Origin: Propionibacterium freudenreichii subsp. freudenreichii
Lineage (GTDB): Bacteria; Actinomycetota; Actinomycetes; Propionibacteriales; Propionibacteriaceae
NCBI RefSeq assembly: GCF_000940845.1
Contig: NZ_CP010341.1
Coordinates: 2,520,001 to 2,552,000, forward strand
Length of the DNA: 32,000 nucleotides
Direction: 5' to 3'
Shown here: positions 3,956 to 31,789 of the stretch, piece by piece
Position numbering within the stretch: position 1 is the first letter of the stretch
How the letters are laid out: each line of letters starts with the position of its first letter
Made by a program: the position numbers and the translations under genes
Notes under the pieces: generated by a model
The model's input: only the letters and a program-made list of their open reading frames with translations
Told to the model about the DNA's origin: nothing
Databases searched by the model: none

Positions 3956-6900
3956 ATGCAGGCCCTCCAAGGAAGGCGCCGGTCACGACGGGTGATGGCG
4001 GCCGCGGTAGCAGCCCTCACCGCCATGACCGTGCTGCCCTCCCAGCTCAACGCCGTTGCTGCACCCACTGATTCATTCGCTACCACGATGCCTGATGCGG
4101 CCCTAAGGGGTTGCGTCACCACGGCGCTGAACCTCGATTCCACCGCCGCTCCAACTTCGGACCAGCTCGCAACCGTGACCAGCCTCAGTTGCTCTGGCAA
4201 GGGCGTCGCTGACCTCACCGGTATCTCGGCCCTCCCCAACCTGGGCAAGCTATTTCTGGGCAACAATTCGCTGACCAGCTTGGCCCCACTCGCGACGTCA
4301 ACCAAGGTCTCCTCACTCGACGTCTCCAGTAATCAGCTTTCCGACATCACCCCGACGGCCAACCTGAAGGCCCTTGTCAGTGTGAACGTGGCGAACAACC
4401 GGCTTCGTGATCTTTCCCCGCTGAGCACCCTCCCGAATCTCGGAGGGCTGAGCATCACGTCAAATAGCCAGAAGGCAGTGGGAGCACCCGCCACCTCGGG
4501 CCAAGCGACCGCAGTCCCGACGGCCATTGACAAGACCGGCACGGTGTTCAAGGCCGAGGCACCGAGCGGGGTCACGGTGAGCGGCGCGACCGTCACCTAC
4601 CCGATCGCCGGCACGTACGACTGGTCGTTCAAGGACCAGAGCCTCTACTTCAACGGCACCATCACCGTCACAGTTTCCGCTGCATCGGGCGTGACCATCC
4701 CGGACGCCGGGCTGAGAGGGTGCATCAACGACAAGTTGGCCCTGGCCCCGGACGCCACGCCTACTCAAGACCAGCTCGCATCGATCACCGACCTCTCCTG
4801 TGTCAACAAGGGAGTCACCGACCTGACCGGCATATCGCAGCTGGGCAGCTTGAAGAACCTCACCCTGTCGACCAACAAGATCTCCGATCTCACGCCCCTG
4901 ACTCCCCTGACCGGTCTCGAATCACTCATCCTCACCGGTAATTCTGTCGCGGACGTATCGCCGCTGACGAGCCTGCAGAATCTCGCTGCCCTCACGCTCG
5001 ACCGGAACAACGTCTTGACACTGAACGGGCTGGGATACCTTCCCAAGCTCGCAACCCTTTCAGCATCATCCCAATTCAAGAATGAGGGGAGGACGCGCCT
5101 GGCAAGCATTGCAGGCCTCGACAAATTGACCGGGCTCACGAGCCTCGCGATCAACAACACTGACGTATCGGACCTCACCCCGGTGACTGGCCTCTCCGGC
5201 CTCACCAGATTGTCCGCAACCAACTCCCAGATCTCGTCTGCGGCACCGCTCGCCGCACTTGGTCGGCTCACGGCCCTTGATCTCAGTGGTAACCACATCT
5301 CAGATATTTCGCCCCTGAACAAGCTGGACATGACGTTGAATGCAATGCGCGTCACCGGGCAAACCCTTGCGGCGCCCGAGGCGAAGGCGTCGGTTGCGAC
5401 GGACGCGCCAGGCGTCACCGCGCTGGACGGAAGCATTCTCGTGGCAGCTCCCCCTGCGGGCCTCACGGTCAACGACGCCAAGGTCACCTACGCCTCTCCG
5501 GGCGATTACACCTGGACCTTCGAAGAGAAGACCCCCGGCAGCTATCCGAGGACTTTCTTCAGCGGCAAGATCACCCAGAGGGCAACCGATGCCCCGCCTG
5601 CGGTCGTGGGGGTGGACATCCCTGATACGAATTTCCGTACCTGCCTCGCCGGATTGCTCAACCACAGTGATCCCGCGGCACCCATCAGCGCCGATGAACT
5701 GGCTGGTCTCACCTCCGTGATCTGCGTCGGGAAATCAATCTCGAACCTCACCGGGGCCGCGAACCTGACCGGAGCAACTGAACTGATCCTGTCCACCAAT
5801 TCAATCTCCGACGTCACGCCGTTGCGTGGCTTGACCCAGCTGCAGAAACTCTACCTTCCGGGGAACAAGATCTCAGATCCTGCTCCGCTGTCCTCGCTCA
5901 CGAATCTGAATGAGCTGCTGTTGGGACAGAACCAGGTCACTTCCATCTCGGCGTTGTCCCCGTTGGCCGGACTCACCACGCTGGAAATCAGCCAGAAATA
6001 CGACAAGAACGGAAACACCGGTCTCACCAGCCTTGACGGCGTGCAGCACATGTCTTCGCTGAAGGCTCTGACGGCCAACAACTCCCGTATCTCGGATCTG
6101 GCGCCGTTGAAGGATCTGCACGAACTCAGCTCGCTCTACCTGAACAACAACTCAGTGAATGACCTCACGGCGCTGTCAGGACTGACCGCGCTTGAGAAGC
6201 TCGGGTTGAGTAACAACAACATCTCCAGCGTTACGCCACTGGCTTCCCTGACGAAGCTGTCCCGAATCGACATCGGGAATAATCACCTCATGGACCTGAG
6301 CCCCCTCGGATCCACGGCGATTGATGCCACGTTCAACCTGAACGCAAACAATCAGGCCACCCACCTTGCCACGGTCCCCGTCGGGCTCACCACGAGTGTT
6401 CCGCAACCGCGAGACATGAAGGGCGCAATTGTGCCCGTCACGCCTCCTGCAGGCCTGACGATCACCGATGGCACCGTCACTTACCCAAAGTCGGGCACGT
6501 ATTCATTCACGTGGACCTCATCCACCGGGGAGGGTGGCAAGTCATTCAGCGGAAGCGTTGACCAAGAGGTGGGTGCTGCAGTCATCGGCGCGGCAAACGT
6601 GCCCGACGCGGCACTACGCTCCTGCCTTGCCTCAGCAGCCGGCCTCGACGCCACCGCGTCCCCGACCGTCGACCAGCTCAAGGCACTGACCACCGTGAAG
6701 TGCGCGTCCAAGGGAATCACGAACCTGACCGGCGTTGAGAACCTCACCGCCGCCACGACCATCGACCTGTCGGGCAACACCCTGGCCGACGTCACCCCGC
6801 TGGCGGGGCTCGACAAGCTTGCCACGCTCAACCTGTCCCACACCGGACTGTCGTCGTTGACCACCGTGTCCGCCCTTCCAGCGCTCACCGCGCTCACCAT

Positions 6901-7324
6901 CAGCGGTAATCCGATCACCGACCTGTCGGCGCTCAAGGCGAAGACCGGCCTGGTCCTGCAGGCCACCGACATGACCGGCAGCGCCCCGGACGTGAAGGGC
7001 GGCGTCGCCAGCGACGTGCCCACCGCGTTCGACGCCACCGGCACCTCGGTTCCGCTCGGGGCCCCCGCCGGCGCAACCGTGGCGAACGGCAAGGTGACCT
7101 ACACCGCTGCGGGCAGTTATTCATGGCCCTTCACCACCACCGGCGGAGCCTTCTCGGGGACGATCACGCAGAAGGTCACCAGCGATGCGACCGACCCCGA
7201 CGCCAACAAGGGCGCCCAGGCCTGCGTGCAGGCCGGCAATGTGTGTGGGTCGTGGTGGAACGCGACACAGGCCTTCAGAAGGGCGGCTGCGCCACGAAGT
7301 TCTCCACCGGCACCGAGGCGCTGA
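3956..7324 (+). CDS. secreted internalin-like LRR surface protein, N-terminal reading-frame segment (frameshifted gene, part 1)
   Basis: Signal peptide ([37 protein letters not shown]). Four repeats of [cap ..PDAxLRxC..., about 22-aa LRRs LxxLxxLxLxxNxIsDlsPL, Ig-like inter-repeat ..VTYPxxGTYxWxF...FSGxItQ]. After position 7247 the frame turns into Arg/Pro-rich junk and stops at 7324. Confidence 0.85.
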
Positions 7325-8331
7325 CGAGCGCAGGCTTCACCACTGACAATCCGACCTTCGTCGGAAAGATCGACGGCTACCCGGCAACGGCCCCCGTCGA
7401 TGACCCCGGGCGCTACTCCTACTGGACCTACTGGCACGGCGTCTCCGCCGACCCGACGGCGACCACCCAGACCTACCCGTGGACCTTTTCCGAAGTGGGC
7501 CTCGGCGACTACCACCCGCGTGCCGGATCAGTGGAGGGCTGGCGCTTCGCAGTGAACCTGGGCAGTACCGACAAGGTGCCTGCCCCGAGCTTCGTGCTGA
7601 GCTACACCAACGGCGCGTCCCCGAGCCCGACGCCCACGCCGAGCCCGACGCCTTCCCCCACTCCCACGCCGAGCCCGACGCCCAGCGCGACCCCAACCCC
7701 GACACCCACGCCAAGCCCGAGGCCCAGCGCGACCCCGACGCCCACACCAACCCCGACGCCCACCCCCGTGGCGTGCACCATGTCCTACCCCGATGTGCCG
7801 TCCTCAATGGCCTTTTCGGACGACATCTGCTGGCTGACACAGCACAAGATCGCCACGGGCTGGCCCGACGGCACCTTCCGTCCGGTCACGCCGCTCAACC
7901 GTGACGCCATGGTGGCGTTCCTCTACCGGATGGCCGGCTCCCCGGCGTTCACGCCCACCCGGCAGACCTTCACCGACGTCGACGCGGGCAACATGTTCTT
8001 CAAGCAGATCGAGTGGGCCGCGTCCAATGGCATCGTCACGGGCTGGCCCGACGGCACCTTCCGTCCCACCCAGCCCATCACCCGCGACGCGATTGCCGCG
8101 CTGATCTATCGCCAGGCGGGAAGCCCCGCCGTGACACTGCCCGACCGCCCGTCATTCAATGACGTCTCGCCGACCACGATGTTCTACCGCGAGATCGAAT
8201 GGATGCAGGCCAAGGGCATCGCCAACGGTTGGGCCGACGGCAGCTACCGTCCGCTCAACGATACGAACCGTGACGCGATCGCCGCCTTCCTGCACCGTGC
8301 GACCGATCAGGGGGTGCTGGCCCTGCACTGA
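7243..8331 (+). CDS. C-terminal reading-frame segment of the same surface protein: DUF4430/transcobalamin-like domain, Pro/Thr linker, 3 SLH domains (frameshifted gene, part 2)
   Basis: Frame +2 relative to part 1. [32 protein letters not shown]...FVGKIDGYP...YWTYWHG...[18 protein letters not shown] resembles DUF4430. Three SLH repeats follow (F.DV....F...I.W....I..GW.DG.FRP...). Confidence 0.8.
7618..7767 (+). repeat. coding low-complexity (Pro-Thr/Pro-Ser)n linker repeat
   Basis: [50 protein letters not shown], encoded by reiterated CCGACGCCCACGCCGAGC-type units. Confidence 0.9.
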
Positions 8332-19183: not shown

Positions 19184-19259
19184 GGGGCATTAGCTCAGTT
19201 GGTAGAGCGATGGCTTTGCAAGCCATAGGTCAGGGGTTCGAATCCCCTATGCTCCACCA
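19184..19259 (+). tRNA. tRNA-Ala (anticodon UGC), CCA encoded
   Basis: GGGGCAT TA GCTC AGTTGGTA GAGC G ATGGC TTTGCAA GCCAT AGGTC AGGGG TTCGAAT CCCCT ATGCTCC A CCA folds as a cloverleaf by hand. The anticodon loop is cTTTGCAAg. Confidence 0.95.
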
Positions 19260-20621
19260 AAAGTGACATTTTCGAACCCTGCCCCGCAGACCAGCGGGCA
19301 GGGTTCGAAGTGTCTTCGGGGTCGGATGCTTCGGCCTCGGCGATCGGTGCGTGACCAGGGATGACGCAGTCCAACGCTGCCTGGACGGCCTGGTCGGGCT
19401 GGTAGCGGATGGTCTGCTCGTCGTCGAGGATGATCTTGTCGAAGAGGGCTCGGTTGAGGATGCGGCGTTCAGCAGGTTCGCATCGCGCGTAGACGTCGCC
19501 GAGATCGGTGAGGATGTCGGCGAGCTGGTCGAGGCCCTCACGGGCGTCCTCGTAGCTGGTGGCGAGGTTCTCCAGCCGGTGTTCGATAGCGTCGTGAGTG
19601 GTGCGGATGCGTTCCTGCTCGGACTTGAGGAGGTCGAGCGGGATGGCGTCGGCGTAGTGGGCTTGGACGAGCTTGAGTCGCTCGGCGTCGAGCTTCTCCT
19701 TCTGGGCGGTCAGGAGTGCACGTTCGTCGTCGGTGGTGGCTTCGAGCTGGTCGAAGACGGCTCCGAGGACTTCGCGGACACGATCGGCCTCGTCGGGGGT
19801 GAGGCCGTTGGCGCCGTAGGTGGAGTCGATCCGGTCCTCGATGCGGTCGGTGAGGATGGCGGACCGCGTGCAACCGTTCTTCTTGCGGCGCCCGGAGCAG
19901 GTGAAGTACTCGTAGGTGATGCCGGACTTGCCGGTGGGGCATTCGATCATCATCTTCGCCCCGCACGAGCAGTAGAGCGTTCCCTTGAGGTAGTGGTCGT
20001 GGGTGCGGGGCTTCTCTCCGCGCTGGTTCTTCGCCGCCAACTCCGTCTGGACTCGCAGCCAGGTTTCGGTGTCGACGAGAGGGTCGTGAGCGCCGTCGTA
20101 GGTGATGCCGCGGAAAGTGACGCTGCCCTGGTAGTAGGGGTTCGTGAGGACCTTGTGCAGCGCTTTCGTGGTCACCGGTTTCGCGGGGAAGGACGGGGTG
20201 GGGCGGGTGGTGAGCCCACGGGCTTCCAGCTCTTTCGCGAGGGAGGAGAGAGTCCAGTTGCCGGTGGCGTAGGCGGTGAAGGCGAAGGTGACCAGGTCGG
20301 CGCGTTCGGGATCGACGGTGACATCTCGGACCTCACGCCCCTTGGCATCAGTGGTGCGCACGTTCAGGTACCCGAGGGGTGCTTTGGCAGGAGTGCCGCC
20401 CATGCTGGCTTTCTGGGTCATTCCTTTGAGGACTTCTTGAGCGAGGTTCAGGGAGTAGAACTCGGCCATGGAGGCGAGGATGCCGTGCATGAGCATCCCT
20501 GAGGGCGTCTCGTCGATGTTCTCCGTCACGGAGACCAAGCTGATGTTCGCATCCCGAAGCGTCGCGTGGATGATCGCGTCGTCGAGGCGGTTGCGAGCCG
20601 GGCGGTCGACCTTGTTGATGA
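19195..20621 (-). pseudogene. large serine recombinase, 5'-truncated by IS insertion (catalytic N-terminus missing)
   Basis: The frame continues upstream of the first Met as LINKVDRPARNRLDDAIIHATLRDANISLVSVTENID (end of the resolvase domain). Then come a recombinase domain, a zinc ribbon (CSCGAKMMIECP...FTCSGRRKKNGC) and a coiled coil. The reading frame is cut at the IS inverted repeat at 20622. The 3' end of the ORF runs antisense into tRNA-Ala. Confidence 0.8.
19271..19309. repeat. perfect 14-bp-stem dyad directly 3' of the tRNA (tRNA terminator and/or att-like dyad)
   Basis: TTCGAACCCTGCCC (11 nt) GGGCAGGGTTCGAA. The arm resembles the tRNA T-arm GGGGTTCGAA. Confidence 0.5.
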
Positions 20622-22100
20622 GTAACTGTTCAGGTGGTGGCTGGGGTCCAGGCCTGTCCGTTGAACAGGTCGACGAGGACCTGGTAGGTGTTGCAGGCCT
20701 GCTTGGTGGCGGTGGACAGGTAGGAGCGCAGCCGGAGGAAGCCCTCGGCGCCGGTCAGAGTGCGGTGGCATCCCGAGACCTTCTGATGCACCTTGACCAT
20801 GCGGATCTCGCGTTCAGCGGCGTTGTTGTCGGGTGCCAGGCCCGGTGTGGTGGCGAAGCGCAGGTAGTCGTCGATCCGGGCACTGATCCGCCGGGCCAGG
20901 GCGCGGTGCTTCGCCCCGACCTTCCCGGGCACTCCCGAATCCGCACCCAGTCGTGCTGCGTCGACGATGAGACGCCGCCCGGCCTCCAGCAGTCCGGGGT
21001 CGGCCTGTCCTGCGGCGGCGTGGGGATCGCGGATCAGCGGCAGGAGGGCGTCGAGGACCTGGCGGGCCCAGCAGAACGCCCCGGGCGGGTCGTGGGCGTC
21101 GTGGTGGTCGGCCACCGCGACCAGTTCGCGGATCAGGTGGGCGCAGCACAGTTGGTGGTCCACGTGCTCGTAGGTGTCGTAGGGGGCCCACGCGTCATGG
21201 ACCAGCACACCGGTGCAGCCGGGCAGGATGCCGGCGGCATCCATCCCCGCCCGGCCCCGCCGCCGGTGCACACTGATATGCGAGTACTGACCGGTGGAGG
21301 CCGAGTGGACCCAGTGCAGCTTCCCAGCGACCCGCAGCCCGGTCTCATCGGCGTGGACGACAGGGGATGCGGCGATCCGGCCCGCCACCTGGCCGGTGAA
21401 GGCGTCCAGGGGCTCACCGCCCGCCTGTTCGACGGCGGCGGCCACCGCCCCGGTCGACACGGGCATCCCCAGCAGGTCGGCCATGGTCACCGCGACCCGC
21501 CTGATCGGTATGTACTGGCCGGCGGCCAGGTAGACCATCGCCGCACGGGCCGCCGGCCCGTAGGAGACCGGCGCGGCCACCCCGGCCGGAGCCGTCCCCG
21601 CCGTCAGGTGCCCGCAGGCGCACCGGCGGGTGAGGATCTGGTGCTCGGTCACCACCGCGCGCACCTGGGGCAGGTCGACCACCTGCCGGGCCACCACACC
21701 CACGTCGCAGCACTCGTCCAGGACCCCGCCGCAGGCCGGGCACCGGTCCGGGGCGTGGGTCACGATGTGATCGGGATGATCGACCTGGCGCAGGGCCGCA
21801 CCCGGATGGCCGGGCTGGCCGCCCGGGTGCCGTTCTGAGGGGCGCCGCAAGGATTTCGGGGCCGGCTTGGCCAACCCGTCTGCCGAGGGTGGCTTCGACG
21901 AGTTGCGCGAGGTCGACCCGAGTTGGCGTTCCAACTCAGCGATCTGGGCCGCCTGGGCGGCCACCAGCCCGACCAGCTCGTCATAGGTGGGTTTACGCGA
22001 CCGCGGCATGCCCCGAATACTCCACCTCCAGCCCCCGGACCAGCGACGCGACACGCCGCACACCCCGCCAGACCCCCGAACCCACCAGCTGAACAGTTAC
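20622..22100 (-). mobile_element. IS66-family insertion sequence (single-ORF, ISBst12-like type), 1479 bp
   Basis: Terminal inverted repeats GTAACTGTTCAGGTGGTGG (20622-) and the complement of CCACCAGCTGAACAGTTAC (-22100) match 18/19. They enclose one transposase ORF. The flanking 8-mers differ (GTTGATGA vs GACTGGCT). Confidence 0.8.
20630..22009 (-). CDS. IS66-family transposase
   Basis: N-terminal coiled coil (YDELVGLVAAQAAQIAELERQL, SSKPPS), zinc-finger CPACGG...C.CGH, and a DDE core (VHADETGLRV, LVHDAWAPY, QLCCAHLIRE, PDNNAAEREIR). Start taken at MPRSRKPTYDEL. Confidence 0.85.
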   Translation of the reverse strand: MPRSRKPTYDELVGLVAAQAAQIAELERQLGSTSRNSSKPPSADGLAKPAPKSLRRPSERHPGGQPGHPGAALRQVDHPDHIVTHAPDRCPACGGVLDECCDVGVVARQVVDLPQVRAVVTEHQILTRRCACGHLTAGTAPAGVAAPVSYGPAARAAMVYLAAGQYIPIRRVAVTMADLLGMPVSTGAVAAAVEQAGGEPLDAFTGQVAGRIAASPVVHADETGLRVAGKLHWVHSASTGQYSHISVHRRRGRAGMDAAGILPGCTGVLVHDAWAPYDTYEHVDHQLCCAHLIRELVAVADHHDAHDPPGAFCWARQVLDALLPLIRDPHAAAGQADPGLLEAGRRLIVDAARLGADSGVPGKVGAKHRALARRISARIDDYLRFATTPGLAPDNNAAEREIRMVKVHQKVSGCHRTLTGAEGFLRLRSYLSTATKQACNTYQVLVDLFNGQAWTPATT

Positions 22101-22565: not shown

Positions 22566-23099
22566 TCAGGCCTTCTCGGGGGCGCGGGTCTCGGAGCTGA
22601 TGAACCAGGCCTGCTGCTCCAGCTTCTGGGTGTACTCGTGCAGCATGTCCGAGGTGGTCGGATCCTCCGCGTCGACGGCGTCATGCACCTCGCGCATTGT
22701 GGCGACAGTGGCCTCGATGGCGGCCACGATGAGGTCGATGGCGTCGTGGGTCGACACCTCGCCCTGCGGGAACTGGCCGATCGAGGTGCGGGCGGCGACC
22801 ACCGAGGGACGGCCGTCCGGGGTGGCGTGCAGAGCGCGCAGACGCTCGGCGAACTCGTCGGACCCGTCACGGGCGATATCGACGACCTCATCGAGGTTCA
22901 GGTGAAGGTCGCGGAAGTTCGGCCCCACGATGTTCCAGTGGGCCTGCTTGCCGACCAGGCTCAGGGCGATGAGATCGACCAGGACCTTCTGGATGTTGTC
23001 GCTCAGCTCCTGGGACGCGCGGAAGCCCTTCTCAGCGTTCTCCGCGGCGGTCCGGGTGTCTCCAGCGTGCTTCGGAACGGTGATGGACTGCTCGGTCAT
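22566..23099 (-). CDS. dps: Dps-family DNA-binding ferritin-like protein
   Basis: KQAHWNIVGPNFRDLHLNLDE....D..AER..AL ferroxidase-centre pattern. ATG at 23099 is preceded by GAAGGAG. Confidence 0.88.
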   Translation of the reverse strand: MTEQSITVPKHAGDTRTAAENAEKGFRASQELSDNIQKVLVDLIALSLVGKQAHWNIVGPNFRDLHLNLDEVVDIARDGSDEFAERLRALHATPDGRPSVVAARTSIGQFPQGEVSTHDAIDLIVAAIEATVATMREVHDAVDAEDPTTSDMLHEYTQKLEQQAWFISSETRAPEKA

Positions 23100-23222
23100 A
23101 TGACCTACTCCTTCTATCTCGACGTCTCTTTCGCTCTCTGTGGGGTGGAACGTCCCACCGCCCTCCACTATTCCGTGTAGGAGAGCCCGGCGTGTCGCGA
23201 TCGGGCAGGATCCCGCACGCCC

Positions 23223-23912
23223 TCAGCCGGCCGCCAGCTCCTCCAGGGCGTCGACGTCGCGCAGCGTGATCTCCGCGCCCGAGGTGGCGATCAGGCCCTT
23301 CGATCGCAGGGCGTCCAGGCCCCTGCTGAACGACTCCGGGGTCATCCCGAGCAGCGACGCCGTGTCCTTCTTGGCCATCGGCAGCCTCACCCGGTAACCC
23401 GACTCCTCGGCGCTCCCCGGCTGATCCAGCAGATAGCCGGCGATCCGTGCCGGCCGGCTGGTGGAGGCCAGGCTCAGCCGGTGCTCGGCGTCGTCCAGCC
23501 GCTGAGCCAGTGAGCGCAGCATGGCCATCGCCACCGACGGATGGGAGGCGATCAAGGGCGCCAGATCGGCCCGCGAGAAGACGCACATCCGGGTGGGGGC
23601 GGCGGCCTCGATGAGATAGCTCGGTGCCTCCCCGGTGAGGAAGGACCCCTCCCCCACGAAGTCGCCGGGCCCAGCCAGCCGCAGCACCCGCTCGTGGCCG
23701 CTCGCCGAGAGCCGCGACACCTTCACCTGCCCCCGGTGCACCACGGCCAGGCGCCCGGTCGCCGGCCCGAAGGCCTCCCCCCGCTCCAGCGACGTCGGCC
23801 TGGCCAGGGACCCGACGGCGTCCTGATCAGGCGCGCTGAGACCGCCGAACAGCGGGACCAGACGCACACAGCTCACATGCTCGGTGACGTCGGTCAGAGG
23901 CAGGTTCTTCAC
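23223..23912 (-). CDS. Crp/Fnr-family transcriptional regulator
   Basis: cNMP-binding-like beta-roll (..GDFVGEGSFLTGE..) and C-terminal HTH (KKDTASLLGMTPESFSRGLDALRSKGLI). No N-terminal Cys cluster, only a single Cys. Confidence 0.85.
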   Translation of the reverse strand: MKNLPLTDVTEHVSCVRLVPLFGGLSAPDQDAVGSLARPTSLERGEAFGPATGRLAVVHRGQVKVSRLSASGHERVLRLAGPGDFVGEGSFLTGEAPSYLIEAAAPTRMCVFSRADLAPLIASHPSVAMAMLRSLAQRLDDAEHRLSLASTSRPARIAGYLLDQPGSAEESGYRVRLPMAKKDTASLLGMTPESFSRGLDALRSKGLIATSGAEITLRDVDALEELAAG

Positions 23913-24340: not shown

Positions 24341-24371
24341 GCCGACCGCCAACCGAATGCGAAGGAGAAGG

Positions 24372-26381
24372 ATGATGTCTGCTCTCAAACGCCCGGGGCC
24401 GCGACTTGCCGCCGCCGGGATCCTCATCGCGGCCGCCCTGGTGATGGGCCGCCTCGGCACCGATTGGGCACTGCCCGGCAACATCGCCATGGCTGCCGCC
24501 GCCATCATCTCGACCATCCCGATCGCGGCGGCCGCCCTGCGGGCGCTGCGCTCCAGGACGATCGGGATCGACCTGCTGGTCACCATCGCCTCGATCGGGG
24601 CCCTGGCGATCGGCAACTACTGGGAGGCGGCCGCCGTCACCTTTCTCTTCGCATTCGGCCACGTCCTGGAGCAGGGGGCCATGACGCGCACCCGATCGGC
24701 CCTCACCGATCTGGTGCGCTCGGCCCCCCAGGACGCCGTCCTGGTGCGCGACGGACGCACCGAGACCGTGCCCACCCGCACGCTGAGGCCCGACGACGTC
24801 GTACTGGTCGCCGCCGGCAGCTCCGTCTCGGTCGACGGGACGGTGATCTCGGGATCCGGTGCCGCCGACGAGTCGGCGGTGACCGGGGAATCCATGCCCG
24901 CCGAGAAGACGCCGGGCGACCAGGTGCGATCCGGCACCACGCTCACCTCGGGGATGGTGCAGGTGCGCGCCGAGAAGGTGGGCTCCCAGACCCTGCTGGC
25001 CCGCATCGTGGCCAGGGTCGAGGAGGCCCAGGACGCCCGCGGACGGGTGCAGACGATGATGGATAGGTTCGGACGCTGGTACACCCCGGCCATCATCGTG
25101 CTTGCGATCGTCGTCGGGCTCATCAGCGGCAGCCTCACGCTGGCCCTCACCCTGCTGGTCATCGGCTGCCCTGGCGCCCTCGTGATCTCGGTGCCGGTGG
25201 CCGTGGTCGCCGGTATCGGACGCGGGGCCCGCGACGGCATCCTCATCCGCGGCGGGGAGCATCTGGAGACCGCGGCGAAGGTCGACACCGTCGTCTTCGA
25301 CAAGACCGGGACGCTGACCACCGGGCATCCCGAACTCACCGACGTCGTGGCGTACGGGGCCGCAGGCGAGGAGGAGGTGCTCCGGTGGGCGGCGCTGGCC
25401 GAGATCGGCTCCGGGCACCCGCTGGCCGGCCCGATCCTCGACGCCGCCCGGAGCCACGGCGTCGCCCCCGGGGAAGTTCCCGGCGAGGCCGACGCGATCC
25501 CGGGACGCGGCCTGATCGCCGACGTGCTGGACGCCGAGCACCCGCAGACCCGCCATCGGGTGGTCGTGGGCACAGTGGAACTGGCCGGCCAGGAACTGGG
25601 CTACGACAAGGAGTCCGACACCGCATGGGCGGCCCGGACGTCCGCCCGGCTGGCCGGCGGCGGGGCCACGCCGGTCACCGTCGTCCGCGACGGCGTCCTG
25701 CTCGGCGTGCTCGCGATCGCCGACACGATCCGGGCCGACGCCCCCGCCGCACTGGCCCGGCTGCGCCGGACCGGCGTCACCCGTCTGGTGATGCTGAGCG
25801 GCGACCGCCAGGAGGTCGCAAGCGCGGTGGCCGATCAGCTCGGCATCGACGACGCCCGTGGCGGCCTGCTGCCCGAGGACAAACTGGCTGCAGTCCAGGA
25901 GCTGCGCGCCGGCGGAGCGGTCGTGGCCATGGTGGGAGACGGCATCAACGACGCCCCGGCCCTGGCGGCCGCCGACGTCGGGGTGGCGATGGGGGCGGCC
26001 GGCAGCGCTCTGGCGGTGGAGACCTCCGATATCGCGCTGATGGCCGACGACCTCACCCGGCTGCCGGAGTCCCTGAGGCTGGCCCGCCGCACCCGCGCGG
26101 TGATCCGCCAGAACATCGTCATCGCCGTCGCGACGGTGACCCTGCTGCTGGCCGGGGTGCTGCTCGGCGGGGTGACGATGGCGCTGGGGATGCTCGTCCA
26201 CGAGGCGTCTGTGCTCGTGGTCATCGTCAATGCCCTGAGACTGCTGGGACGCCGAGCCCGCACCCGCGAGGAGTCCCGCCAGGACCAGGCCGGCAAGCAG
26301 GATCAGCCGTGGCAGACTTCAGAGCATGGCGGATCGAGATCGGGACGCCCAGGGGCGTCCCCGCAACAGCAGGCCGCGTGA
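24372..26381 (+). CDS. heavy-metal-translocating P1B-type ATPase (no N-terminal metal-binding domain; CPG transmembrane motif)
   Basis: DKTGTLT, GDGINDAPAL, TGES and MLSGD motifs. The TM motif is IGCPGALVISVP and the terminal TM has HEASVLVVIVNALRL. GAAGGAG lies upstream of the ATGATG start. Confidence 0.88.
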   Translation: MMSALKRPGPRLAAAGILIAAALVMGRLGTDWALPGNIAMAAAAIISTIPIAAAALRALRSRTIGIDLLVTIASIGALAIGNYWEAAAVTFLFAFGHVLEQGAMTRTRSALTDLVRSAPQDAVLVRDGRTETVPTRTLRPDDVVLVAAGSSVSVDGTVISGSGAADESAVTGESMPAEKTPGDQVRSGTTLTSGMVQVRAEKVGSQTLLARIVARVEEAQDARGRVQTMMDRFGRWYTPAIIVLAIVVGLISGSLTLALTLLVIGCPGALVISVPVAVVAGIGRGARDGILIRGGEHLETAAKVDTVVFDKTGTLTTGHPELTDVVAYGAAGEEEVLRWAALAEIGSGHPLAGPILDAARSHGVAPGEVPGEADAIPGRGLIADVLDAEHPQTRHRVVVGTVELAGQELGYDKESDTAWAARTSARLAGGGATPVTVVRDGVLLGVLAIADTIRADAPAALARLRRTGVTRLVMLSGDRQEVASAVADQLGIDDARGGLLPEDKLAAVQELRAGGAVVAMVGDGINDAPALAAADVGVAMGAAGSALAVETSDIALMADDLTRLPESLRLARRTRAVIRQNIVIAVATVTLLLAGVLLGGVTMALGMLVHEASVLVVIVNALRLLGRRARTREESRQDQAGKQDQPWQTSEHGGSRSGRPGASPQQQAA

Positions 26382-27244: not shown

Positions 27245-28417
27245 GTGCCTGATCAAAAATCGCGGGATCCCCGCGCCCGCGTTCAGGCCGCTCATCTCGA
27301 GGCGAAGGCCCGCCCCGGCGTCCTCAGCCGGCACCGGGCCTGGTTGATGGTCGGCGCGGGGTTCTCCCTGCTCGCTGGCCTCGACGGCGCTCTCATCCTA
27401 CTGGGGGTCTGGTCGCCGGTGCTCACCGCCCGGCTCTCGCAGTGGCACGGCCCCTTCATGACGCTGGGCTTCATCGGCACCGTCATCTGCCTGGAGCGGG
27501 CCGTCGCCCTGGACCGTACGTGGGGCTATCTGGCCCCGCTGGCCTCGGGCATCGGGTCGATTCTGCTGGCCTCCCCCGCACCGGTGCAGATCGGGCTGGC
27601 ACTGCTGCTGCACGGCCAGATCGGCATGCTCGCCATCTACATCCCCTTGTGGCGGCGCAGCGAGGACGACGCCACCGTCATCCAGGCCGCCGGATCGGCA
27701 TGCGCGGTCGGCGCCGCCGGGCTGCTGCTCGCCGGGGTCGAGGTGAGGTCGGTGATCGGATGGCTGTCGTGCTATCTGGTGCTGACCATCCTCGGGGAGC
27801 GCCTCGAGCTGTCTCGGCTGACGATGACTCGGAACCGCTTCCTGCCCGCCGCCGCACTGTGCCTGCTGGCCGCCCTGGTGATCCAGACCGCCTCGCCGAA
27901 GGTCGGCTGGCCGCTGCTCGGCGTCGTGCTGGTGGTGATGTCGGTGTGGCTCATCGACAAGGACGTCGCCCGGGTCGGCATGCGGCGCGGCGGGCAGGCC
28001 GCCTACATCGGCGGGATGCTGATGGCCGGCTATGTGTGGCTGGCGATCGCCGGCGTCGTGTGGATCTTCTCCGGGCCGCTGGGCACCGGTACGGGATATG
28101 ACGCCGCCGTCCACGCCGTCTTCCTGGGATTCGTGATGGGCATGATCCTGGGGCATGCGCCGATCATTCTTCCCGCCGTGCTGCGGATCCGCCTCGACTG
28201 GTCGAACTGGTTCTGGGTGCCGGCGGTGCTGCTGGAGGCCTCGCTCGTGGTCCGGTTGGGGATCGGCGACGGGCTGGGCCTGCCCCTGGCCGTCCAGATC
28301 GGTGGGACGATCAATGTGATCGCCCTGCTGAGCCTGATCGCCGTCGTCGTCACCCATGCCCATTCACGAGATGGTGCTCATTCAGCCCATCCACACGACA
28401 GGAGGTCCCGTGCCTGA
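27245..28417 (+). CDS. 12-TM integral membrane protein, possibly NnrS-like (start uncertain)
   Basis: About twelve hydrophobic segments. His-containing motifs WHGPFMTLGFIGT and VHAVFLGFVMGMILGHAP are reminiscent of NnrS-type proteins that accompany nirK. The GTG at 27245 abuts its putative SD, so the true start may be downstream. Confidence 0.5.
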   Translation: MPDQKSRDPRARVQAAHLEAKARPGVLSRHRAWLMVGAGFSLLAGLDGALILLGVWSPVLTARLSQWHGPFMTLGFIGTVICLERAVALDRTWGYLAPLASGIGSILLASPAPVQIGLALLLHGQIGMLAIYIPLWRRSEDDATVIQAAGSACAVGAAGLLLAGVEVRSVIGWLSCYLVLTILGERLELSRLTMTRNRFLPAAALCLLAALVIQTASPKVGWPLLGVVLVVMSVWLIDKDVARVGMRRGGQAAYIGGMLMAGYVWLAIAGVVWIFSGPLGTGTGYDAAVHAVFLGFVMGMILGHAPIILPAVLRIRLDWSNWFWVPAVLLEASLVVRLGIGDGLGLPLAVQIGGTINVIALLSLIAVVVTHAHSRDGAHSAHPHDRRSRA

Positions 28418-31163
28418 GATCACCTCGCGCCCGCAAGAGGATCCAGGGAGACCCGCCCCGAAGGGCTCCGACCGGACCCGCCGCAGCGCCTGGCACCGCA
28501 AGGCCTCCGCCCCGGTGTCGGTGTGGCTGGTGGCCCTGCTCGCCGTGGTGATCGGCGGGCACTGGATCCCCCAGCAGCGGTGGCTGCTGGTGCACATGGT
28601 GACCCTCGGCGTGGCGACCACCTCGATCCTGGTGTGGGGGCAGTACTTCACCGAGTCGATCCTCCACGAGAAGCTCGCGGAGCCGGACCGCAAGCGCCAG
28701 GTGTGGCGGATCCGCATCCTCAACCTCGGCGTGCTGGCCTGCTGCGTCGGCATGGTGCCGAGCTGGCCGTGGGTGGTGGTGGCCGGCGCCACCGTCGTCG
28801 GTCTGGCGATGTGCTGGTACGCCCTCGACCTGGGCCTGCAGGTGCGCCGCGCCCTGCCGGGACGATTCGACGCCACCGTGCGGTTCTACAGCGCCGCGGC
28901 CTGCCTGCTGCCACTGGGCGCGATCGCCGGGGCGGTGATGGCCTTCTCTCCCGAGGAGCCCTGGCGCACCCGACTGCTGATGGCCCACCAGGGGCTCAAC
29001 ATCATGGGATTCGTGGGGCTGACGGCGGTCGGCACCCTGGTGACCCTGTGGCCCACGGTGCTGCGCACGAAGATGCAGCCCACTCAGGACCGCAACGGGA
29101 GGCGGGCTCTGTGGATCATGTGCGCCGCCGTTCTCGTGATGACGGTCGGATCGCTGGCCGGATGGTGGTGGCTCGAGGCCGCCGGGGTGCTCGCCGAACT
29201 GGCCGGGCTGTGCGTCGTCGGGGTCGACCTGGTGCGCTGCGCCATGAAGAAGCCCCCGCGGGACTTCCCCGGATACTCGATGGGTGCGGCGGTCATCTGG
29301 TTCGCCATCTGGCTGGGATGGCTGGCCGCCACCATCCTCATCAAGCGCGACCACCTGCTCCAGGAGGACATCACCGCCCTCACCGTGCCAGTGGTCGTCG
29401 GCTTCCTGCTGCAGTTGCTGCTGGGGGCCATGAGCTACCTCATGCCGATGGTGATGGGCGGCGGGCCGGCGATCGTGCGCGCCACCAACGCGAGGATGCA
29501 CACCCTGGGGGCGCTGCGGGGCACCGCCACCAACGCCGGACTGGTGATCTGGGCGCTGGCCGCCGGGACGTGGACCTCCCGGATCGGACTGGGACTGGCC
29601 ATTCTCGGGATGGCGGGATTCCTGCCGGCGATGGTCGCCATGGTGAAGACCGGGGTCGGGATGCTGCGGGCGAAACGGGCCGCGGCCGAGCAGAAGGCCC
29701 CGGTGCCGGCGGCCGACCGCGCGGATCACTCGCCCGAGGGCCGTTCTGGGGCTCCGGAGCCCGGGAAGGCCGCTCCAGCTAGCAAAATGCGCACTCCCAC
29801 CAACCATCCGGCCCCGGCTCCCACCGCCCCGACCTCCCGGCGCTCCTTCGCCGAGGCGGCGATCGGCCTGGGCGCCGCCCTGGGAGCGGTGGCCGTGGGC
29901 TGGCGCCTTGACGGGGACACCTCCGGCTCCGGGTCTTCCGGCCATGTCACCGCGACCGGCCGCACCACCACCGTCAAGATCTCGATGAAGGACATGCACT
30001 ACCACCCGTCGGCGGTCGAGGTGCCCGCCGGGAACCGCCTGGTGGTCCAGCTCCACAATGCCGATCCGGAGCAGACCCACGACCTCTACTTCCCCTCCGG
30101 TGCGGCCTCGAGGCGGCTGGCCCCCGGGCAGAGCCAGACCGTGGACGCCGGAGTCATCAGCGCCCCCACCCAGGGGTGGTGCACCATCGTGGGCCACCGC
30201 TCGATGGGCATGGAGCTCGAGGTGACGGTCGGCGGCGCCTCCGCCTCCCAGGGCGGATCCTCGGCGGCAACGTCCACCCGCCGGAAGATCGACCTCACCA
30301 AGGCGCCCGGTGCGGGTTTCCGCACCCGTGACGCCAGGCTCCCGGCCCTGCTGGCCGGGCGTGATCACACAATGACCCTCACGGTCACCGAGTCCACCCA
30401 GGAGGTGGCCCCTGGCGCCACGATCCGCGCCATGACCTACAACGGGCGGGTGATGGGACCGGCGATCCACGCCCGGATCGGCGACACCATGGACGTCCAC
30501 CTGGTCAACCGCGGCTCGATGGGCCACTCGATCGACTTCCACGCCGGGACCGTCTCCCCCAATGCCGTGATGCGCACCATCTCGCCGGGAGCGTCCCTGG
30601 ACTACCGCTTCACTCTGCACCGGTCGGGCGTCTGGCTGTACCACTGCTCGACGATGCCGATGAGCTCGCACATCGCCGCTGGCATGTACGGGGCGGTCGT
30701 CGTGCCTCCCCACGACCTGGCCCGCGCCGACCGCGAGTACCTGCTGGTGCAGTCGGAGACCTACCTCGATTCAGCCAACGGCAAGGAGGTCGACGCCGAC
30801 AAGATCGCGGCCGAGACCCCCGATCTCACGATGTTCAACGGCCACGCCAACCAGTACGTCTTCGCCCCACTGACCGCGAAGGTCGGGGAGCGGGTGAGGA
30901 TCTGGGTTCTGGCCGCAGGCCCGAGTCGTGGTATCTCATTCCATGTGGTGGGTACCCAGTTCGACACGGTCTTCAAGGAGGGCGCCTACCTGCTGCGCCC
31001 CGACAACGCCGAGGGCGGCGGGGCCCAGGCCCTGGATCTGGCCAGCGCCCAGGGAGGATTCGTGGAGATGGTCTTCGAGGAACCGGGCCGCTACACCTTC
31101 GTCAACCACTCCTTCGTCGAGATGGAGCGCGGGGCGAGGGGACTCATCGAGGTGATCTCATGA
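28410..31163 (+). CDS. nirK: membrane-fused copper-containing nitrite reductase: 12-TM domain + Tat-like/TM segment + cupredoxin domain + two-domain NirK core
   Basis: NirK ligand motifs HSIDFHAG, WLYHCSTMPMSSHIAAGMYG, FHVVGTQFD and TFVNHSFVEMERGARG. Extra cupredoxin with THDL...GWCTIVGHRSMGM. N-terminal ~470 aa polytopic. GGAGG 4 nt before GTG 28410 (ORF-track start is 28356). Confidence 0.85.
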   Translation: MPEITSRPQEDPGRPAPKGSDRTRRSAWHRKASAPVSVWLVALLAVVIGGHWIPQQRWLLVHMVTLGVATTSILVWGQYFTESILHEKLAEPDRKRQVWRIRILNLGVLACCVGMVPSWPWVVVAGATVVGLAMCWYALDLGLQVRRALPGRFDATVRFYSAAACLLPLGAIAGAVMAFSPEEPWRTRLLMAHQGLNIMGFVGLTAVGTLVTLWPTVLRTKMQPTQDRNGRRALWIMCAAVLVMTVGSLAGWWWLEAAGVLAELAGLCVVGVDLVRCAMKKPPRDFPGYSMGAAVIWFAIWLGWLAATILIKRDHLLQEDITALTVPVVVGFLLQLLLGAMSYLMPMVMGGGPAIVRATNARMHTLGALRGTATNAGLVIWALAAGTWTSRIGLGLAILGMAGFLPAMVAMVKTGVGMLRAKRAAAEQKAPVPAADRADHSPEGRSGAPEPGKAAPASKMRTPTNHPAPAPTAPTSRRSFAEAAIGLGAALGAVAVGWRLDGDTSGSGSSGHVTATGRTTTVKISMKDMHYHPSAVEVPAGNRLVVQLHNADPEQTHDLYFPSGAASRRLAPGQSQTVDAGVISAPTQGWCTIVGHRSMGMELEVTVGGASASQGGSSAATSTRRKIDLTKAPGAGFRTRDARLPALLAGRDHTMTLTVTESTQEVAPGATIRAMTYNGRVMGPAIHARIGDTMDVHLVNRGSMGHSIDFHAGTVSPNAVMRTISPGASLDYRFTLHRSGVWLYHCSTMPMSSHIAAGMYGAVVVPPHDLARADREYLLVQSETYLDSANGKEVDADKIAAETPDLTMFNGHANQYVFAPLTAKVGERVRIWVLAAGPSRGISFHVVGTQFDTVFKEGAYLLRPDNAEGGGAQALDLASAQGGFVEMVFEEPGRYTFVNHSFVEMERGARGLIEVIS

Positions 31164-31789
31164 CCGAGAATCAGCACACACTCACCGATCCCGGGGCCGA
31201 TTCTCCGGCCGACCGGGTCGTCGAGGCCCTCAGGCGCCGTGGCGGCACGGCCTCGGCCGCCGAGGTGGGCGCCGATCTGGGCATCCACGTCTCGACGGCG
31301 CGCTTCCACCTGGACCATCTGGTCGAGGACGGACGCGCCCGGTCGGGTCGCGAGAAGCGCGCCACCCGCGGGCGCCCGCGCACCATGTTCACCCTGACCC
31401 CCGACCCGAAGGAGGGGCCGAGGGCCTACCAGATGCTCGCCGGGGTGCTCGTCGACCACCTGTCGCGGCAGGACGACGCCGTCGCCCTGGCCCACCAGGC
31501 CGGGGTGGAGTGGGGACGTCGGTACGCAGGTGTCGACGTCACCGAGATCCTTGAACAGATCGGCTTCGCCCCTTGCACGACCCTGGTGGACGACGACCAG
31601 GATGAGGGCCCGGACGGCGAGGCACGGATCGCACTGCGCCACTGCCCCTTCATCGACGTCGTCCAGGAGCATGCGGCCCTGCTCTGTCCGCTGCACCGCG
31701 GCGTCGTCGAGGGGGTCGTGGGCCATCCGGTGACTCTGGAGGCCCACCCCGGCGCAACCTGCTACGTCGATCTGGAGCAGGCCGGCTGA
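31160..31789 (+). CDS. winged-helix (ArsR-like) transcriptional regulator with C-terminal Cys/His-bearing domain
   Basis: N-terminal wHTH (VVEALRRRGGTASAAEVGADLGIHVSTARFHLDHLVEDG). C-terminal LRHCPF......LLCPLHRGVVEG. ATGA overlap with the nirK stop. Confidence 0.6.
   Translation: MTENQHTLTDPGADSPADRVVEALRRRGGTASAAEVGADLGIHVSTARFHLDHLVEDGRARSGREKRATRGRPRTMFTLTPDPKEGPRAYQMLAGVLVDHLSRQDDAVALAHQAGVEWGRRYAGVDVTEILEQIGFAPCTTLVDDDQDEGPDGEARIALRHCPFIDVVQEHAALLCPLHRGVVEGVVGHPVTLEAHPGATCYVDLEQAG

Follow-up and report, generated by a model that had tools for sequence, protein, structure and literature searches.

We examined a 32,000-nucleotide stretch of Propionibacterium freudenreichii subsp. freudenreichii DNA (contig NZ_CP010341.1, positions 2,520,001 to 2,552,000; hereafter the window), in which a copper nitrite reductase (NirK) is encoded in one frame with a polytopic membrane domain. 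The full gene for this long membrane-anchored NirK (28410..31163, +) stands between a gene for a 356-aa membrane protein (27347..28417, +) and a gene for a helix-turn-helix (HTH) regulator (31160..31789, +), the ATG of which overlaps the nirK stop codon. The open reading frame (ORF) at 28356..31163 (+) runs for 935 codons uninterrupted by any in-frame stop, and its GC content at third codon positions (GC3) stays at 0.85-0.95 from end to end, including the linker between the membrane and the copper domains. Residues are numbered throughout on this 935-aa frame, counted from the ATG at 28356. The likely start codon is GTG 28410, which would give a protein of 917 aa, because an AGGAGG sequence is located at 28400-28405, 4 nt before the GTG, and because the preceding gene, with its TGA at 28415-28417, overlaps this start; the same overlap suggests that nirK may be translationally coupled to its upstream neighbor. 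Hydropathy, AlphaFold2 modeling, Pfam and PDB matches bore out the four-part anatomy that an earlier note, made from the sequence alone, had described for this frame, i.e., 12 transmembrane (TM) helices, a linker with a segment resembling a twin-arginine translocation (Tat) signal, an extra cupredoxin domain and a NirK core.

Related loci were obtained from a scan of one genome per species, which returned the 12-TM domain in at least 573 genome stretches (at least 573 species genomes); the best 80 were kept, nearly all of them from Actinomycetota. In 72 of these 80 best related loci, which come from independent actinobacterial genomes, a single ORF covers the TM domain, the cupredoxin and the NirK core, and therefore the fusion is neither a chance event nor a sequencing error. 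The genera with the fusion include Acidipropionibacterium, Cutibacterium, Luteococcus, Brachybacterium, Dermabacter, Rothia, Kocuria, Arthrobacter, Nocardioides, Intrasporangium and Thermocrispum. A hidden stop codon between the membrane domain and NirK, which the earlier note had named as the finding that would separate the two parts, is contradicted by the uninterrupted frame and by the recurrence of the fusion in these loci. Both parts also occur together in proteins of approximately 820-990 aa in the protein collections. An exhaustive profile search returned 1455 clusters at the 50% identity level, and the top 150 matches listed from the exhaustive search of representatives were clear family members only, with no bridge to a named family. 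The protein of the window is closest to Acidipropionibacterium: two database proteins, of which one bears the name A. jensenii, are 80-91% identical to it, and A. thoenii, whose locus (L001) is the closest genome relative, reaches 69-73%. For the Cutibacterium porci locus (L002), the identity amounts to 61% over the TM domain and 79% over the NirK core. As a separate observation, locus L003 (JXSN01000412.1, 1479 bp), labeled ‘Achromatium sp. WMS2’, carries a 12-TM domain 61-63% identical to that of the window. Toward the C-terminus, its sequence is very similar to that of C. porci. The assembly is that of a gammaproteobacterial Achromatium, and the contig is probably a contaminant of Propionibacteriaceae origin.

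The copper-binding half of the protein could be assigned down to the individual ligands. The extra cupredoxin domain (29955..30230, +) is matched by Pfam Cupredoxin_1 at residues 534-597 and by PDB sequences, and its type-1 copper (T1Cu) site comprises H575, C609, H614 and M619. The NirK catalytic core (30366..31154, +) follows, with a match to Pfam Cu-oxidase_3 at residues 677-785 and with E-values of 1e-38 to 8e-44 against the PDB sequences of solved NirKs (residues 671-933). The top PDB match, Hyphomicrobium HdNIR (2dv6), is collinear with both cupredoxin and core over residues 549-933. The NCBIfam NirK model (TIGR02376) matches residues 671-932 with 164 bits, which is under its cut-off of 296 and consistent with the report that Clade II NirK sequences are highly divergent (PMC4770552). 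In the core we assigned H724, C764, H772 and M777 as T1Cu ligands, H729, H763 and H918 as type-2 copper (T2Cu) ligands, and D727 and H863 as the catalytic pair (Asp98 and His255 of AcNiR), the latter being invariant and aligned with those of solved NirKs. All copper ligands and catalytic residues are invariant in 73 out of 73 fused orthologs, except for M777, which is found in 69 of them, and the type-1 copper cupredoxin and the complete NirK core that had been proposed are thereby substantiated. At the level of sequence, these data show a NirK that is predicted to be catalytically complete and to carry an extra T1Cu domain, all within one membrane-anchored polypeptide whose copper domains would lie outside the cell.

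Between membrane and copper domains lies a Pro/Ala-rich, basic and predicted cytoplasmic linker (29697..29834, +; residues 448-493), which is disordered in the AlphaFold2 model (predicted local distance difference test score, pLDDT, < 50) and holds an in-frame ATG at 29787, corresponding to M478. It is followed by the twin-arginine motif and a weakly hydrophobic 13th TM helix, TM13 (29835..29903, +; residues 494-516), which read T-S-R-R-S-F (R495, R496), then the Ala/Gly-rich helix AEAAIGLGAALGAVAVGW, and then R517. Using the AlphaFold2 helix boundaries, the predicted cytoplasmic segments contain 23 Lys and Arg residues and the external segments 4; the N-terminus and the linker are therefore placed inside, with TM13 carrying the copper domains outside. 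This prediction, together with the twin arginines and the character of TM13, fits the proposal that the Tat-like segment serves as a 13th TM helix, and it does not place the copper domains in the cytoplasm, which the earlier note had regarded as fatal to its reading.

Regarding the Tat-like motif itself, its near-consensus form, S-R-R-x-F, was confirmed in the protein of the window, but it is not a family-wide feature, as twin arginines precede TM13 in 31 out of 72 fused orthologs and are missing in 41. The two groups differ in two additional respects: the mean Kyte-Doolittle hydropathy of TM13 is 1.90 in the twin-arginine type versus 2.51 in the rest (Mann-Whitney p = 7e-10; 72 orthologs), and a Lys or Arg occurs within 12 residues after TM13 in 87% of the former versus 32% of the latter (p = 1e-4). 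Particularly Acidipropionibacterium, Cutibacterium and Luteococcus keep the motif in the form D/S/G-R-R-S/D-F/L. In actinobacterial Rieske proteins, Sco3746 and a polyferredoxin, all helices up to the penultimate one are inserted by Sec and the insertion is finished by Tat (Tooke et al. 2017, PMC5449189), and the signature of this dual targeting consists of twin arginines directly before the last TM domain, low hydrophobicity of that domain and a positive charge after it (PMC5449189). With SRRSF, a TM13 hydropathy of 1.84 on the same scale and R517, all three features are present in the window, from which we infer a probable dual Sec-Tat insertion in the clade of the window. The motif also follows an even number of helices, 12, counted from a predicted cytoplasmic N-terminus, as is expected of proteins targeted in this way. 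For the long-NirK family in general, Tat cannot be a requirement, because the 41 orthologs without twin arginines also possess the more hydrophobic TM13.

The 12-TM domain (28467..29696, +; residues 38-447), the 12 helices of which were placed in agreement by hydropathy and AlphaFold2, was modeled from a 57-sequence alignment, yielding a mean pLDDT of 84.8 and values of approximately 95 in the helical core. Foldseek searches of PDB with this model returned at ranks 1-43 exclusively subunit I of heme-copper oxidases (HCOs) or NO reductases (NORs), each with a probability of at least 0.99, approximately 350-505 aligned columns (mostly ~440-500) and a TM-score mostly of ~0.45-0.59. These matches include CcoN of a cbb3 oxidase (9g6b_A, E 1.8e-4, TM-score 0.54/0.59), ba3 (1ehk) and aa3 oxidases, the cytochrome c-dependent NOR (cNOR; 3o0r_B, 4xyd_A) and the quinol-dependent NOR (qNOR); beyond rank 43, mostly unrelated proteins with poor scores were obtained. 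According to the model, the 12-TM domain is thus predicted to fold like subunit I of HCOs and NORs.

Several observations set limits to this resemblance. The 43 matches agree at the level of the fold only, with an identity of 8-14% and a root-mean-square deviation mostly of ~6-8 Å. No Pfam or NCBIfam model matches the 12-TM domain, and a profile search against PDB sequences gave nothing relevant and no HCO. Pfam COX1 matches two out of the 57 alignment members, the better one with 23 bits against a cut-off of 34.8. A comparison with six A-type HCO sequences by hhalign reached 17% probability (E 1.4e-3) in a register that is off by four helices, and a comparison with E. coli CyoB alone was not significant. 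In the shifted alignment the TM5-6 motifs (GAxLGxxLA / AH / WP) fall on the TM9-10 motifs of the oxidases (GGxTGxxLA / AHFH / WxPK), and we read the four-helix shift as a reflection of the 3 x 4-helix pseudo-symmetry of this fold, not as proof of homology. Overall, the domain may be described as an HCO-like scaffold at most.

Investigating the conservation of the domain, we found that only H80 (TM2), H211 (TM6), G218 and R388 are invariant in 90 diverse representatives, and that the 73 fused orthologs, which share approximately 35-73% identity with the 12-TM domain of the window, are without exception also invariant at Q353 (TM10), P233, R237 and Y178. A handful of polar residues in the oxidase-fold domain are thus under strong purifying selection. 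H80 and H211 are its only two invariant histidines. Based on the AlphaFold2 helix boundaries, H80 in TM2, H211 in TM6 and Q353 in TM10 are predicted to lie at a distance of 6-10 residues (6-8 for the two histidines) from where their helices end on the outer side. In oxidases, these three helices are related by symmetry and carry metal ligands. The six-histidine ligand set of the HCOs is nevertheless incomplete, as TM7 and TM10 have no conserved histidine among the aligned orthologs and TM10 carries Q353 instead. Four of the six ligands, those of TM7 and TM10, have no invariant counterpart, and a canonical binuclear center as in NORs or oxidases is therefore excluded. On the cytoplasmic side, the motifs TLWPTxLRT and GGGP are conserved. 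Furthermore, the 12-TM domain occurs in apparently stand-alone copies of 435-558 aa (L040, L044, L050, L061, L062 and L080) with no cupredoxin or NirK downstream, some of which retain the 13th helix.

The upstream 356-aa membrane protein (27347..28417, +), the real start of which is M35 of a longer ORF, directly precedes the fusion in approximately 28 out of 80 loci. It has no Pfam or NCBIfam match, its 33-member alignment gave a single match to NnrS at E 0.44, and one source labels a member of this family ‘NnrS family protein’. Its AlphaFold2 model has a pLDDT of 93, and the high-probability Foldseek matches of this model are again restricted to HCO/NOR subunit I (TM-score <= 0.70). BLASTP between the N-terminal domain of NirK and this protein revealed no similarity, and only profile-profile comparison uncovered their relation: hhalign aligned the two families over 228 columns with 90.8% probability (E 1.2e-6; 63% with a smaller alignment). 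Because of this match and the common predicted fold, we consider the two proteins as remote paralogs, one free and one fused to NirK, of a single uncharacterized oxidase-fold family. The invariant residues of the upstream protein include H34, H256, H270, E50, E151, E154, D206 and D252.

The genomic context of this family gives a hint to its putative function. Proteobacterial homologs of the upstream protein are annotated as ‘hypothetical’ and located within clusters with Rrf2 regulators. On Cupriavidus necator pHG1 (L082, locus 6782-8074), the neighbors are qNOR, YtfE, nrdDG, a metal-sulfur cluster assembly factor, Rrf2, DUF2249 and hemerythrin genes; on a Paraburkholderia fungorum plasmid (L083, locus 5890-6999) they are NnrS, Rrf2, DUF2249 and hemerythrin genes, and the Rrf2/DUF2249/hemerythrin clusters of both annotated records also hold a metal-sulfur assembly gene. 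These homologs appear to form an oxidase-fold family, as yet without a name, that belongs to NO-response clusters. In the unannotated record of a Variovorax locus (L085), we additionally observed an NnrS match approximately 180 bp downstream of the homolog. In the actinobacterial cassette, DUF2249-containing or hemerythrin genes adjoin in 14 loci, including the stand-alone 12-TM copies of L061, L062 and L080, which are flanked by an HTH regulator and a DUF2249 gene, that of L061 also with a hemerythrin domain.

The HTH regulator downstream of nirK (31160..31789, +) is part of the conserved cassette and is found upstream of the fusion in other genera. Its library matches are limited to weak HTH_20, IclR-HTH and weak SufR hits, and its C-terminal Cys3-His motif (C162, C176, H179 and C201) is present, at each position, in 14-17 of 18 aligned homologs. 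As judged from this motif, it may provide a metal or Fe-S site for sensing NO or copper. In Brachybacterium and Dermabacteraceae (loci L005-L049), two conserved genes without Pfam match were observed upstream of the fused nirK in 15-17 loci, one of ~188 aa directly upstream and one of ~508 aa further up, which may be clade-specific accessory genes.

In addition to this cassette, the window holds several features of its own interest. A P1B-type heavy-metal ATPase (24357-26381, +; TIGR01525, 541 bits) is encoded approximately 2 kb ahead of the NirK cassette; an N-terminal HMA domain is missing, its TM motif reads CPG where CPC, CPH or SPC is usual, and genes for DUF309 and DUF488 proteins come after it. 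The ATPase gene is adjoined by genes for a Crp/FNR-family regulator (23223-23912, -) and a Dps-like ferritin (22566-23168, -), a pair that could set the NirK region in a regulatory context of anaerobiosis or oxidative stress. Further upstream, an IS66-family transposase (20630-22063, -) is found beside a serine recombinase (19195-20538, -), which matches only positions 97-144 of 145 in the resolvase catalytic-domain profile, and the GC content falls to approximately 0.65-0.66 between 17 and 21 kb; a mobile element may have its boundary here, ahead of the NirK region. Finally, a lower-GC stretch (0.60-0.63) encodes an internalin-like leucine-rich-repeat surface protein of 1122 aa within 3956-8331 (+), and an overlapping ORF of 402 aa (7123-8331, +) matches such a protein in its C-terminal part. 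A frameshift, a split gene or horizontal acquisition of the DNA could account for this arrangement.

Together, these observations are best explained, in our assessment with moderate confidence, by a single membrane-anchored long NirK of approximately 917 aa with an oxidase-fold membrane domain, which would be assembled by Sec and Tat and would have a role in NO handling or electron transfer. The N-terminus would stay in the cytoplasm, followed by the 12-helix oxidase-fold domain and the basic linker inside, and TM13 would cross outward and expose the cupredoxin and the NirK core. In the clade of the window, the first 12 helices would be inserted by Sec, before S-R-R-S-F, the weakly hydrophobic TM13 and R517 would hand the folded copper domains over to Tat, as in actinobacterial Rieske proteins and Sco3746. 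The external NirK would reduce nitrite to NO with electrons passing from the T1Cu of the cupredoxin via the T1Cu of the core to its T2Cu. The least certain step of this model is that the oxidase-like domain would be more than an anchor, namely one of two paralogs in a cassette of regulator, paralog and NirK that is tied to NO-response genes.

Other explanations were considered for the way in which the protein is made and exported. A sequencing or assembly error that fused two adjacent genes has the unusual length as its only argument and was ruled out, with virtually no probability left to it, by the single ORF in 72 out of 80 genomes, the proteins of ~820-990 aa, the uniform coding signal and the published long NirKs. 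Initiation at ATG 29787, which sits 17 codons before the twin arginines, would produce besides the full-length protein a separate cupredoxin-NirK, soluble or signal-anchored, and a product starting at M478 would indeed open with a plausible Tat signal peptide. This second product, which the earlier note had proposed as an option, is very improbable, and the internal start was rejected as a conserved feature: no Shine-Dalgarno-like sequence is found 5-12 nt upstream of this ATG (the nearest, GGGAAGG, is 17 nt away), and the start codon is missing in relatives with the same motif, with no ATG, GTG or TTG within 45 codons upstream of DRRSF in A. thoenii (L001) and no ATG or GTG within 40 codons upstream in L010, L016 and L019. 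A more serious alternative, albeit still rather unlikely, is that the twin arginines act as a positive-inside signal only, that TM13 is inserted by Sec/YidC and that the copper domains fold and load their copper outside, without any contribution of Tat. The 41 out of 72 orthologs that have one Arg/Lys or none at this position and a TM13 of clearly higher hydrophobicity with VDPAAAGL at its end are in line with it and weigh against a general use of Tat, as does the fact that copper can also be loaded outside the cell; moreover, some NirKs, e.g., Neisseria AniA, are Sec-exported lipoproteins. What favors Tat in the window’s clade is that three independent features co-vary in the twin-arginine orthologs as in proven Sec-Tat substrates, and that the near-consensus S-R-R-x-F is conserved across Acidipropionibacterium, Cutibacterium and Luteococcus.

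For the membrane domain, a degenerate relic without cofactor that merely anchors or scaffolds the enzyme is quite unlikely. The missing counterparts of the four canonical TM7/TM10 histidines and the lack of any sequence family model that recognizes the domain would agree with such a relic, but a single helix is enough for anchoring, 73 orthologs share at least seven invariant polar or aromatic residues despite their divergence, and the domain is maintained in 1455 clusters and in stand-alone copies. We consider the domain as more than an anchor because none of the 73 fused orthologs deviates at H80, H211, Q353, R388, P233, R237 or Y178 and because stand-alone copies exist. If it were instead a quinol-oxidizing or heme-b electron-input module, the whole protein would act by itself as a menaquinol:nitrite oxidoreductase and would stand to soluble NirK in the relation of qNOR to cNOR. 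An electron donor is required for the fused cupredoxin and, to our knowledge, monoderm Actinobacteria have no soluble periplasmic cytochrome c or azurin to serve as one, and H80 and H211 are found on the helices and at the depth where HCOs hold their heme and CuB ligands. Nevertheless, this module is an unlikely one, second to a role in NO handling, considering the apparently stand-alone copies without any fused redox partner, the absence of an identified quinol-site motif in the 12-TM domain, a genomic context that indicates NO stress rather than respiration, and the existence of actinobacterial NirKs without a TM domain (PMC4770552). On the predicted fold, the domain could also be a cofactor-bearing minimal branch of the HCO fold, which would bind heme or metal via H80 and H211, possibly with Q353, and either reduce or scavenge the NO of NirK or oxidize menaquinol to drive NirK, with the upstream paralog as a second member; we hold this, too, for a minority possibility. 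Somewhat greater, albeit still tentative, is the chance that the membrane domain binds, scavenges or converts NO released just above it, at a putative site including H80 and H211. A role related to NO is favored because of the gene context of both paralogous families and because of the stand-alone copies beside DUF2249 and hemerythrin genes. Two facts fit neither NO handling nor electron input well: Intrasporangium calvum is reported to have a separate qNOR besides a nirK (PMC6349771), and most of the invariant non-glycine residues face the cytoplasm (R170, Y178, W232-P233-T234, R237, the GGGP motif, R388 and N393).

The question of what the membrane half does reaches beyond this genome, as many Actinobacteria of skin, mouth and dairy products (including Cutibacterium, Rothia, Corynebacterium, Brachybacterium and Acidipropionibacterium) have a long membrane-bound NirK as their nitrite reductase, and these organisms take part in forming NO and N2O on and within hosts and foods. 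The predicted fold, the two invariant histidines, the paralogous partner and the NO-stress context now make this question experimentally approachable. If the dependence on Tat holds true, a 13-helix copper enzyme would join the small set of proteins inserted cooperatively by Sec and Tat, and if the membrane domain bears a cofactor, nitrite-to-N2O conversion or NO detoxification could take place within one polypeptide, or menaquinol could drive NirK directly.

Compared with known systems, the gene of the window is an orthologue of the published actinobacterial long-NirK class and, being Acidipropionibacterium-like, shows no essential difference from it. The order of parts, i.e., a polytopic N-terminus of ~400-500 aa, a CX4HX4M cupredoxin and the core, is common to both. 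Actinobacterial NirKs span 500-900 aa (Helen et al., PMC4770552), and the NirK of Propionibacterium (Cutibacterium) acnes, with ~900 aa, a TM N-terminus of ~400 aa, a CX4HX4M cupredoxin and a NirK core, was reported there as an earlier finding, which probably goes back to reference 20 of that survey (Ellis et al. 2007, J Biol Inorg Chem 12:1119), the sentence itself being uncited (PMC4770552). For Corynebacterium pseudotuberculosis, a NirK of 882 aa with 13 predicted TM helices was described (Almeida et al. 2017, PMC5338063). The fusion described in the earlier note had thus already been published (PMC4770552, PMC5338063). The statement of the note that the function of the membrane domain is not established holds; the 2016 survey left this domain with ‘unknown function’ (PMC4770552). 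An oxidase-like fold, a paralogous neighbor and an internal Tat motif are not reported in these two long-NirK papers.

The copper domains resemble HdNIR of Hyphomicrobium denitrificans (2dv6, E 8e-44) and of its strain 1NES1 (6tfd, E 2e-42), which are collinear with them and likewise possess an extra T1Cu site. HdNIR is soluble and periplasmic and carries its signal at the N-terminus, unlike the protein of the window with its 13 TM helices ahead of the cupredoxin. With subunit I of the HCOs (cbb3 CcoN, ba3, aa3, NorB of cNOR, qNOR), the membrane domain has the predicted 12-helix fold and histidines on TM2 and TM6 in common, but it differs by lacking invariant histidines in TM7 and TM10 and consequently a canonical binuclear center. 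With regard to targeting, the Sec- and Tat-inserted proteins (Rieske, Sco3746, polyferredoxin and the YkuE family; PMC5449189) share the cytoplasmic N-terminus, twin arginines before a weakly hydrophobic last TM domain, a trailing positive charge and an external cofactor domain, whereas in the protein of the window Sec would insert 12 helices rather than 2-4, and the external domain binds copper in place of an Fe-S or Mo cofactor. Tooke et al. 2017 (PMC5449189) and a 2020 review make no mention of copper enzymes or nitrite reductase.

NnrS (PF05940), a 12-TM heme/copper protein of NO-responsive regulons that is often encoded beside nirK, is polytopic with conserved histidines like the membrane domain of the window, and the nirK-nnrS pair of proteobacteria, with NnrS encoded next to nirK in Rhizobium, is the classical analog. 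The gene context is alike as well, in that the domain of the window is fused to NirK and its paralogous family is found beside Rrf2, DUF2249, hemerythrin, qNOR and NnrS genes. However, NnrS has six invariant histidines versus two or three in the families of the window, and an identity of the 12-TM domain with NnrS was rejected, as Pfam NnrS matches none of the 57 alignment members and hhalign against a nine-sequence alignment of genuine NnrS proteins gave a probability of approximately 1%. In the searchable literature, the coverage of which leaves out subscription journals, we found neither an oxidase-like or NnrS-like description of the 12-TM domain nor a description of Sec-Tat targeting of NirK. 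Overall, the predicted oxidase/NOR-like fold, the paralogous neighbor in a cassette of the NO-stress type and the clade-specific Sec-Tat signature are apparently new additions to the picture of the actinobacterial long NirKs.

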